Shown here: in pieces, positions 47,821 to 50,800 of the stretch
Position numbering within the stretch: position 1 is the stretch's first letter
How the letters are laid out: the number at the start of each line of letters is the position of its first letter
Assembly: GCF_024298765.1 (NCBI RefSeq)
Contig: NZ_CP101210.1
DNA: 64,000 nucleotides
DNA from: Escherichia coli
GTDB taxonomy: Bacteria > Pseudomonadota > Gammaproteobacteria > Enterobacterales > Enterobacteriaceae
Reading direction: 5' to 3' (one strand)
Made by a program: the position numbers

Positions 47821-50800
47821 GTTTAAAAGACATCGGCGTCAAGCGGATGTCTGGCTGAAAGGCCTGAAGAATTTGGCGCGTTAACAAAGCGGTTATGTAG
47901 CGGATTGCAAATCCGTCTAGTCCGGTTCGACTCCGGAACGCGCCTCCACTTTCTTCCCGAGCCCGGATGGTGGAATCGGTAGACACAAGGGATTTAAAAT
48001 CCCTCGGCGTTCGCGCTGTGCGGGTTCAAGTCCCGCTCCGGGTACCATGGGAAAGATAAGAATAAAATCAAAGCAATAAGCAGTGTCGTGAAACCACCTT
48101 CGGGTGGTTTTTTTGTATTTGTATTTTGAGCAATGGCGGTAGAGTGGCGGTGGTGTGGCGATATGCAGAAACAATAATGGTGGTGCACGTGCTGTTTAAG
48201 CTCTAAGGATGAAGCAGAATTCTCCTGCAGCTCCTCCGTATTTCGCATAGTGAACCAAGACTTCGGTTAAACAAAATTTTTCTGGGATTTTTCCACTCGA
48301 CTTCATTTTTCCTCCAGTCATCCACCAAAGGTACCTGCGCTAATCTATCTTTTTTAATCTGACAACATCCTGAGAAAAGGCAAATTCGTCAGATTTACTG
48401 TTTTTTCTGCTGCTTCGAATGCCGATGTCTGCAGTACTGATAAGAGCTCTATCTCTTTGATATAGATCTTTTTTTTGATGAATTGCTCGACATATTATCG
48501 TTATGACACCTTCTTGTTAAAGGTGTTGTACTCCACATCTCGATTTTATGATGTGGGTTATGATTGGTTAGTAATAGAGTGTATCGGTATGCGATGTGGT
48601 TTATTAATGGCAATATGCTTTTGTTTGGTATCTTTTAGTGGGTATGCAGCAACAGGAAAGTCTGATGTTCAGATCAAGAAAGAAATAATTAAAGAATCCA
48701 TTGAATCATATCCAGGCAATTGTGCGTGTCCTTATAATCATGCAAGGAATGGTAGTAGGTGTGGTGGACGCAGTGCATATAGCCGTACTGGAGGGTATGA
48801 TGTGGTATGTTATGAGAGTGATGTTACTGATGAAATGATCCGGCAATGGAAGCAGGAGAATGCTGATTAATTACTTTTGACTGGTTTGTTTTGCGAGCAT
48901 TATGTGTGTTGTTAACGGTACCCTAGCTAAGTGAGAGTTCCAAAATAAAACCCGCAGTTTTTACGCTGCGGGTTTTATTGTTTCTGTCGATGGGATAGGG
49001 TGCCACTTCGGCCAGCCTTGGCAACCGATTGACGGGGGATTACTCCCCCGTCGCGGTTTCCTTACTGCTTACACTGTAAGAACGCCGCAAACTCCGCTCC
49101 CCAGAAGCTCATCCGTATTTCACACAGCGAACCGTGCAGCATCCAGATGATGAGGATTACCGTCACGCAGAACGTGATGGCCGTAAGCGATTTTTGCGAC
49201 ATAGCGCTTGCTCCTTTTTAGGGGAGGCGCTAACCTATCACTTGCTAAGGTTAGATGGTTAGGGCCTCGGTTAAACAGAGATGTTTTCCGGGGCCTTTCC
49301 ACATCTGGCCTTCGGGCATACCCTCCGACCATCAGCCGAAAGGCACCCGCGCGTAATCTATCGTTTTTTTGTTGCTTCGGCAATTCTGCTCGTTAATTCT
49401 GAGGTAAAGGCAAACTCATCTGATTGTTTCCCCTGTGTGACGTTGGCAGTTCATGCCACGGGATACCTTCTGAAGATCGAACGCCTGAGGTGTGTTTCGA
49501 TGTGAATTTATGGAAAGCTTCCAGTGTTGAGAAGCATACGCCGCATTCCAGGTTGTTACACTGGTAATACTTTTGTCGGACGGTGTTTGAATCATTTTCC
49601 GGACGACTTGTGCGGATACGGGCAGATGCGCCACAAAGCGGACAACGGAACATAGCAACCTCCCTTTAGGTGGTGCTATTCTAAACTTCATCAATGCAGA
49701 TTCCAACTCCTTCCCACTTTAAGCGAAGGATGGTGATAAAGTCAGAATATGTTAGATGAAGTCTAAACGGGCGATAAGTTTTCCAATATTTGAATAACAA
49801 CGTGGCAGGATTTTTGTTTATCAATTATCTTACACTTTTAAGTGTAATAAATTTGTTAGTGATGACAATATTGTGAGAGGAGATTATCAATTGAAGATGG
49901 CAAAAAATAACAATGATAAAATGCGGGCAAAGTATAGGCCGTTCATAAATATATGGGAACATCTTCCTTCTGAGTTCAATGAACTCATCAAGACGTTAAT
50001 GGTGCTGATACGGCAAGGGGAAAATGTGGGAGCTCAGCAAAGGGAGCTTGATTCCATCGAAAACTTCAAACACCTGTTAAGTGGATGGAAGCGGGCGCAA
50101 AGGATCATAGCTGATGAACTCATTATCAGGCTTTCTCAAATCAAGGATCTGGAGTTAGAAAAGAATTGTGCCCATTCAAAAAAGGACTATGAAACAAAGA
50201 AGAAGTGTATACGCAATATTGAAAGGACTAGACTAGAAATTAGGATTTTACGTAGGTGCATTGATTCAATTGTATGGGCGATATTCCGCAATGAACACTC
50301 GTCTATAAGACGGTTACCTATAAATAGAAATACTGACAATCTGACAATATTTAATATACATGATTCAATGGTGGTAGCAGATGAAATCAATGCTGATCCG
50401 ATGGCTATAGCTGTTATCACTGATATTACTACGTTTGTACATACTGGTGATTTACTTGCGTTAATACCTCAGCAAGGCATAACTTTAATTGAAATAAAAA
50501 GTGGTAAGAAAAATATAGAGTTTTCAAAGGCGGCTATGTTCTCAGTGCAAAGTAAATGTCTTCATTTTGATGAGATTTATAGAAAAGACCTTGATAAAAA
50601 TGACTTGAAACACTATGACAGAGCTAAGCGTCAACTTAAAAGAGCTCAAAATGTGATAGATGTCATTGAAACTGGTAAGGGATTTGATAACTTTTTTCAG
50701 TCTCAAGTAACAATTCATGACAGAGATTTTTGTCCCGATTTTTATACAGATAAGATTATTGAGCTTTGGTATGAGATATATAACGGTAAAACTTGGGCGA

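Follow-up and report, generated by a model that had tools for sequence, protein, structure and literature searches.

We analysed a small gene at positions 48589-48870 (plus strand) of a 64,000-nucleotide stretch of Escherichia coli DNA from contig NZ_CP101210.1 of assembly GCF_024298765.1 (the window). We found that this 93-codon gene is real, under purifying selection and selectively maintained, and that it is optional cargo, a moron, of a P88-like (Xuanwuvirus, Peduoviridae), P2-type prophage at leuZ. Its product would consist of a signal peptide and a single four-cysteine domain, and this mature domain belongs to a large, unnamed family of predicted extracytoplasmic domains. We hold with moderate confidence that the gene is a functional moron encoding a Sec-exported, disulfide-stabilised periplasmic binding module that acts at the cell envelope.

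A small gene under purifying selection

The gene lies within a mechanically called open reading frame (ORF) of 131 aa, at 48475-48870, with a TTG start. Read from the ATG at 48589, the product is MRCGLLMAICFCLVSFSGYAATGKSD...QENAD (beginning MRCGLL). The TTG-start reading, of which 130-aa versions are common from metagenome gene callers, was rejected because the alignment with homologues and the signal peptide both begin at the ATG and the RefSeq protein has 93 aa. The identical 93-aa coding sequence is annotated in RefSeq as a hypothetical protein, both as WP_071589622.1 in NZ_CP195454, a 99.9%-identical genome, and as ECs_2649 in O157:H7 Sakai. The exact protein is encoded on 739 public contigs, in every case under the name hypothetical, uncharacterized or "prophage protein".

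K-12 lacks the gene, in line with the original prediction, which had placed it outside the K-12 backbone and had called for a check of its presence across E. coli genomes. Its DNA was found in 623 of 5,426 complete E. coli genomes (~11%, O157:H7 included), 575 of which cover at least 80% of the region; a few genomic copies of the gene are cut by insertion sequence (IS) elements. Pairwise Nei-Gojobori comparison of E. coli alleles gave ratios of nonsynonymous to synonymous substitution rates (dN/dS) of 0.15-0.19 among close alleles (Sakai, MIN12) and of 0.10-0.13 against a divergent allele with a dS of ~1.5-1.8. Because homologues were recovered at E-values of 1e-57 to 1e-21 and dN/dS is 0.10-0.19, the ORF is far beyond what would be expected by chance.

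These data bear on whether the ORF could be silent or in decay, as had been suggested among other options; it would then be a remnant of horizontally acquired AT-rich DNA that does nothing for E. coli today. Promoter and Shine-Dalgarno signals are weak, AT-rich DNA of this kind is likely to be silenced by H-NS, a decayed hok copy lies alongside, some genomes have IS-truncated copies, and the host prophages are often defective (a frameshifted gpA and an IS in NZ_CP195454, IS30 in Sakai). We nevertheless find this explanation hardly tenable. The dN/dS values are low even for the pair with the high dS, most carrier genomes retain the region (the 575 of 623 above), the exact protein recurs on hundreds of contigs, and the four cysteines and core motif are kept over thousands of clusters (see below).

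An optional gene in a variable slot beside leuZ

The window runs through pgsA, glyW, cysT and leuZ and then departs from the K-12 backbone. Homology to K-12 stops at 48116, and the 124-bp stretch ending there recurs past the integrase, beside yecA, in the near-identical NZ_CP195454. The end of K-12 homology and the far repeat of the attachment site (att) place the 93-aa gene inside a prophage of ~36 kb, 473 bp from attL; the Sakai annotation places ECs_2649 within prophage Sp13. After the gene come hok/sok, ogr, an unannotated 495-aa ORF, gpD and P2-type tail genes. The G+C content is 0.355-0.425 over 48300-48900 against ~0.5 on both sides, which agrees with the AT-rich DNA described originally, and the hok gene reported beside the ORF is intact. 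The ORF was also said to follow the leuZ terminator immediately; this needs correction, since ~470 bp filled by a deleted hok/sok remnant separate it from the terminator (48090-48111).

The nearest isolated phages are P88-like Peduoviridae (Xuanwuvirus). P88 and Chuche have hok-ogr in common with the window at 93-94% identity, and their homology breaks off at window position 48942, just beyond the 93-aa ORF. The slot is occupied in P88 by an unrelated 80-aa ORF (locus L100, 148-390) and in Chuche by com and a DNA methyltransferase, a Mom-like cassette (locus L101, 1452-2394). Because these two phages hold other genes there, the interval between att and hok is a variable cargo slot of P88-like phages, and the earlier suggestion that the ORF is cargo was correct. 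The order ORF-hok-ogr-gpD is also found at leuZ in Salmonella (58% aa identity, with two intact hok copies on the ogr side) and in an E. coli P2-type prophage located elsewhere, beside ytfP (72% aa identity). Thus the gene has the properties of a moron: it lies between core phage genes and att, it is present or absent among relatives, and its base composition is atypical.

A predicted signal peptide and a four-cysteine core

The signal peptide was assessed with heuristic sequence rules. The N-terminus has R2 followed by LLMAICFCLVSF, with a best 10-residue Kyte-Doolittle mean of 3.16, and ends in SGYA ahead of a further A. At the putative cleavage site between the two, the -3 and -1 residues are G and A, a combination that the -3,-1 rule allows. 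Among 61 aligned homologues, all have a hydrophobic h-region and 59 have K or R ahead of it, so that sequence varies and character is kept; the pattern is likewise found in the 80 genome loci and 35 viral loci surveyed below. The protein is probably exported by Sec and cut after A20, giving an 8-kDa periplasmic product. Three more cysteines (C3, C10, C12) lie inside the signal peptide and are not conserved among homologues. A lipoprotein (signal peptidase II) reading was considered and rejected, as all three are outside any lipobox context; lipoboxes were found only in remote relatives on viral contigs (L169, L170 and L173).

The mature part contains exactly four cysteines, C45, C47, C58 and C74, so that the signal-peptide-like N-terminus and four-cysteine mature part (~73 aa) first described for this ORF were both recovered. 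Exactly four mature cysteines are present in 59 of the 61 aligned homologues, and in alignments of closer relatives all four are invariant. The consensus is SDAQIKxxIIxESIxSYPGNC(P/A)CPYNxARNGSRCGGRSAYSRxGGYxPxCYxxDVT, with Y41, C45, C47, P48, Y49, G55, C58, G59, R61, S62, A63, S65, G68, G69 and C74 invariant. Mean column identity of the core is 59% across classes of Proteobacteria, and the net charge of the Cys-rich core was +2 to +5 in all 45 sequences tested. The remote viral-contig relatives finish at ...RCGRRSAYSRPGGY and keep the equivalents of C45 and C58 only. The core is probably held by two disulfides, and since these variants lose C47 and C74 together, the likeliest pairs are C45-C58 and C47-C74. 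Two short helices are predicted around this core, which is basic and irregular. The remote relatives L170 (4662-5105), L173 (4620-5108) and L169 (4821-5264) are lipoprotein-like, L170 and L173 also having a hydrophobic stretch; they probably correspond to phrog_14503 ("membrane associated protein").

The same cysteines could belong to a redox-active or metal-binding periplasmic protein, in which C-x-C (mostly C-P-C) would be a thiol-disulfide centre or would form a Cu/Zn site with C58 and C74. The four invariant cysteines include a C-P-C or C-A-C motif, and a CPC motif serves Mia40 and Cu-ATPases as a redox or metal centre. We consider this explanation unlikely, however, as the remote relatives have lost C47 along with C74 but retain the RCGxRSAYSRxGG core, suggesting structural pairs, and no thioredoxin-like or other known redox fold was found in the fold comparison. 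Cys4 metal sites are, moreover, unusual in the oxidising periplasm.

A large family with no existing model

The protein matched the profile of PHROG 27544 over its full length (E=1.6e-59, 199 bits; residues 13-93 on profile positions 1-81 of 81), and the Cys core alone also touched phrog_14503 (E=6e-7) and phrog_3117. The only Pfam match was Sclerostin (16.3 bits against a cut-off of 27), which we set aside as an artefact of cysteine composition, and NCBIfam gave none; the statement that no family could be assigned therefore stands for both databases. No defence profile in PADLOC-DB 2.0 matched at E<=0.01. Sequence searches of the PDB, with the single sequence and with a profile, returned nothing, and norovirus protease matches at E of ~0.3 were dismissed as noise. 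A literature search on ECs2649, core motif strings and P2-like prophages at leuZ found nothing.

Relatives are nonetheless numerous. A word-indexed search gave 181 homologues, and a mature-domain profile run against 1.84 billion cluster representatives (clusters at 50% identity) gave 2,263 clusters at E<=1e-3 and 1,397 at E<=1e-10. When one genome per species was scanned, 313 relatives turned up; they belong to Acinetobacter, Pectobacterium, Kosakonia, Aeromonas, Pseudomonas, Sphingomonas, Caulobacter, Geobacteraceae, Massilia and Janthinobacterium, as well as to a few cyanobacterial metagenome-assembled genomes. Relatives were also present on 115 plasmids (35 from Xanthomonas, 30 from Pantoea) and on 73 IMG/VR viral contigs.

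Domain fusions and a proposed binding module

In 60 longer family members we looked for fused domains. The partners were SH3_3 (17 proteins), PG_binding_1 (three), PG_binding_2 (one), SNase (three, with the Cys-rich domain at either end) and Adhesin_E (one). Several longer members are tandem duplications of the domain, and one has two copies after Ig-like repeats. All the fusion partners are extracytoplasmic and most are directed to the cell wall; no Pfam model covers the Cys-rich domain itself in any of the 60 proteins. These fusions are the best functional clue, and they are easier to reconcile with a binding module than with an immunity protein.

Because this domain is elsewhere joined to peptidoglycan-binding, SH3b, nuclease and adhesin domains, we read the prophage protein as a binding or anchoring module. 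The 93-aa precursor would be exported via Sec and cleaved after A20, releasing the 8-kDa protein into the periplasm. Its core, Y-P-G-N-C-x-C-P-Y-N...R-C-G-x-R-S-A-Y-S-R-x-G-G-Y...C-Y, would be held by the two disulfides and would be a stand-alone copy of the domain found elsewhere in fusions. As a small module it may bind or anchor to a part of the envelope, with peptidoglycan or some other polyanionic envelope polymer the likeliest target, and the envelope of the lysogen would be altered or shielded, for example against incoming phage or another envelope attack. The analyses show a gene under purifying selection in prophage cargo, a large family, and conservation of the signal peptide, the four cysteines and the fusions; that the product is exported, cleaved and disulfide-bonded in the pairs given, what it binds and how the host gains from it are inferred.

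Genomic neighbours of the relatives

We surveyed the neighbours of relatives at 80 genome loci, at 35 viral loci and on two plasmids. Synteny was internal to genera only (Acinetobacter, Pectobacterium, Kosakonia). In 15 Acinetobacter species (loci L034, L038, L045 and 12 more, ~1075-4200) the gene is directly downstream of cysD-cysN on the same strand, and Pectobacterium copies adjoin genes for a 2-thiouracil desulfurase and an MCP. In other phage contigs, the neighbours are repressors, DNA methyltransferases and uncharacterized genes, and not lysis, structural or virion genes. In the one Xanthomonas plasmid examined, the relative is near the transcription activator-like (TAL) effector gene avrBs3, beside a Tn3-family transposase. 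Further contexts were a Pseudomonas island with phage remnants, MobA/MobL-type contigs, an integrase island and plain chromosome.

The cysD-cysN and desulfurase neighbours may hint at sulfur metabolism or may reflect genus-level synteny only. They would suit a redox or metal protein, as would the SH3 and PG-binding fusions, where the Cys domain takes the usual place of the catalytic domain. We followed the sulfur thread into phages and dropped it: the PAPS reductases encoded beside the gene on phage contigs are no relatives of CysD, which leaves the sulfur link as genus-level synteny only and counts against a redox or metal role.

The survey also bears on a possible orphan periplasmic immunity or superinfection-exclusion protein, directly inhibiting one incoming enzyme (a phage tail lysozyme, or a type VI secretion system (T6SS) or colicin-type peptidoglycan hydrolase). 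T4 Spackle (Sp) and the periplasmic Tsi/Tai immunity proteins are the natural comparison. A small, predicted-exported protein carried on temperate phages, plasmids and islands, here in an accessory slot beside att, would be of this type, in agreement with the original prediction of an exported effector or immunity-type cargo protein. We nevertheless regard an inhibitor as quite unlikely. None of the contexts surveyed has a conserved cognate toxin gene close by, there is no PADLOC match, and the gene looks syntenic and chromosomal in Acinetobacter, Pectobacterium and Kosakonia. The conservation of the core across Proteobacteria classes is unlike that of fast-evolving immunity or exclusion proteins, and fusions to nuclease and adhesin domains are ill-suited to an inhibitor. 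Of the original proposal, then, cargo has held up; effector or immunity function is supported neither way, as no toxin or partner gene is conserved adjacent.

Points against the proposed periplasmic binding module

Several results weigh against a functional periplasmic binding module. The neighbour survey gave no partner gene common across genera, and so no pointer to a ligand. The AF2 (AlphaFold 2) model (pLDDT 82) had no structural match among solved PDB structures; because the fold matches nothing solved, the binding role is argued from the domain fusions, and a small catalytic or redox domain would be just as natural a partner of SH3 and PG-binding domains. The mature protein of the window allele is acidic overall (isoelectric point 5.3-5.8 against a family median of 8.8). 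Consensus and relaxed scans upstream of the gene for a sigma-70 promoter found nothing convincing (best sites 8/12 matches, with 15-bp spacers), and the Shine-Dalgarno sequence of the window allele is weak. A tblastn search of 50,697 deposited phage genomes returned no homologues, so the gene was not found in any isolated phage. Alignment of the upstream regions of divergent alleles revealed no conserved footprint.

A bolder proposal would be that the Cys-rich core is a new, widespread extracytoplasmic module with a new fold, serving envelope-polymer recognition or acting as a CPC redox centre, and spread by phages and plasmids for envelope remodelling or shielding, for example as a new form of superinfection exclusion. 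We think this quite unlikely.

Other features of the prophage end

The features around the gene are collected in the table below. Besides the 3' part of leuZ, the att duplication takes in the whole 3'ETS-leuZ small-RNA region with its terminator, a terminator-like site. At 124 bp it is unusually long, and it is 100% identical to K-12. From this length, the inclusion of the leuZ 3' part and the identity to K-12, it follows that the att copy beside the intact tRNA would be phage-supplied.

The 495-aa ORF between ogr and gpD (49873-51360, plus strand) is very AT-rich (G+C ~0.33) and is a hypothetical protein in RefSeq; it had no Pfam or PADLOC match. It is missing at the equivalent spot in P88, Chuche and the Salmonella prophage. 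Its site looks like a second cargo slot, and the ORF is possibly a defence gene.

The prophage of NZ_CP195454 has a frameshifted replication endonuclease gene, gpA, and an ISKpn26 insertion (14617-17458 and 19843-20823 of that locus), so that it is probably defective. ParM and partition genes are present close to its replication region.

Table. Features of the window from leuZ to ogr, with positions counted from the first nucleotide of the window
Feature	Position	Strand	Remarks
leuZ tRNA-Leu(UAA), prophage integration target	47961..48047	+	ARAGORN; Rfam tRNA 57.7 bits
attL copy of the 124-bp att duplication	47993..48116	+	K-12 leuZ-yecA region located by BLAST in the window and at the far prophage end (NZ_CP195454)
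Degenerate hok/sok locus	48117..48480	-	~130 bp internal deletion, 5' half of mok/hok lost; seen in an alignment to the intact hok locus of the window and to two from Salmonella
93-aa precursor gene	48589..48870	+	Residues 1-20 predicted Sec signal peptide; mature part ~73 aa (8.1 kDa) with C45, C47, C58, C74
Terminator-like hairpin	48944..48979	+	15 pairs and a T-run, 74 nt past the stop codon, in the gap that separates the ORF from the convergent hok
Intact hok/gef-family toxin gene, 46 aa	49062..49202	-	RefSeq "Hok/Gef family protein"
sok / hok-leader-like RNA region	49214..49348	-	Rfam RF01794, 42.7 bits, E=1e-7, under the gathering score of 59
ogr/Delta-type late-gene activator, first core phage gene past the cargo	49393..49653	-	RefSeq; Pfam Ogr_Delta in the Salmonella equivalent

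Significance and relation to known systems

Taken alone, the gene is an ordinary prophage moron built from an undescribed domain, and is not surprising as it stands. The result at the level of the family is more useful: a predicted-exported domain of ~68 residues with four invariant cysteines, in at least 2,263 clusters across Proteobacteria, has no Pfam or NCBIfam model and no solved structure. A definition of the domain together with its ligand would annotate thousands of hypothetical proteins and show what temperate phages and plasmids gain from it. The att-hok slot of P88-like phages is a variable cargo site worth surveying in its own right.

Lysogenic-conversion morons that encode small envelope proteins include lambda Bor, phi80 Cor, T5 Llp and T4 Spackle. 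Like these, the gene is AT-rich and codes for a small phage-borne protein with a predicted export signal; it is followed by a putative terminator of its own and sits in an optional slot on the att side, outside the lysis and virion modules. Unlike them, it has neither sequence nor fold similarity to any of the four, the window protein has no lipobox, and chromosomes and plasmids carry the family as often as phages do. PHROG 27544, a prophage/virus family of which the 93-aa protein is a full-length member, has no function or description in its entry; the wider family of 2,263 clusters is mostly non-viral.

P2-like phages are known to have cargo hotspots in the old/tin and Z/fun regions. The slot described here resembles these in being a fixed position in a conserved P2-type genome that holds different genes in different relatives, but it lies at the ogr-att end beside hok/sok, and its cargo has no match to a known defence system. 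The domain itself is reminiscent of Excalibur (PF05901), DUF3761, SH3b and PG_binding_1, which are likewise short extracytoplasmic domains found alone, in tandem, or joined to SNase, adhesin and wall-binding domains. It differs from all of them in having no Pfam model and in its distinct signature of four invariant cysteines and RSAYSRxGG.

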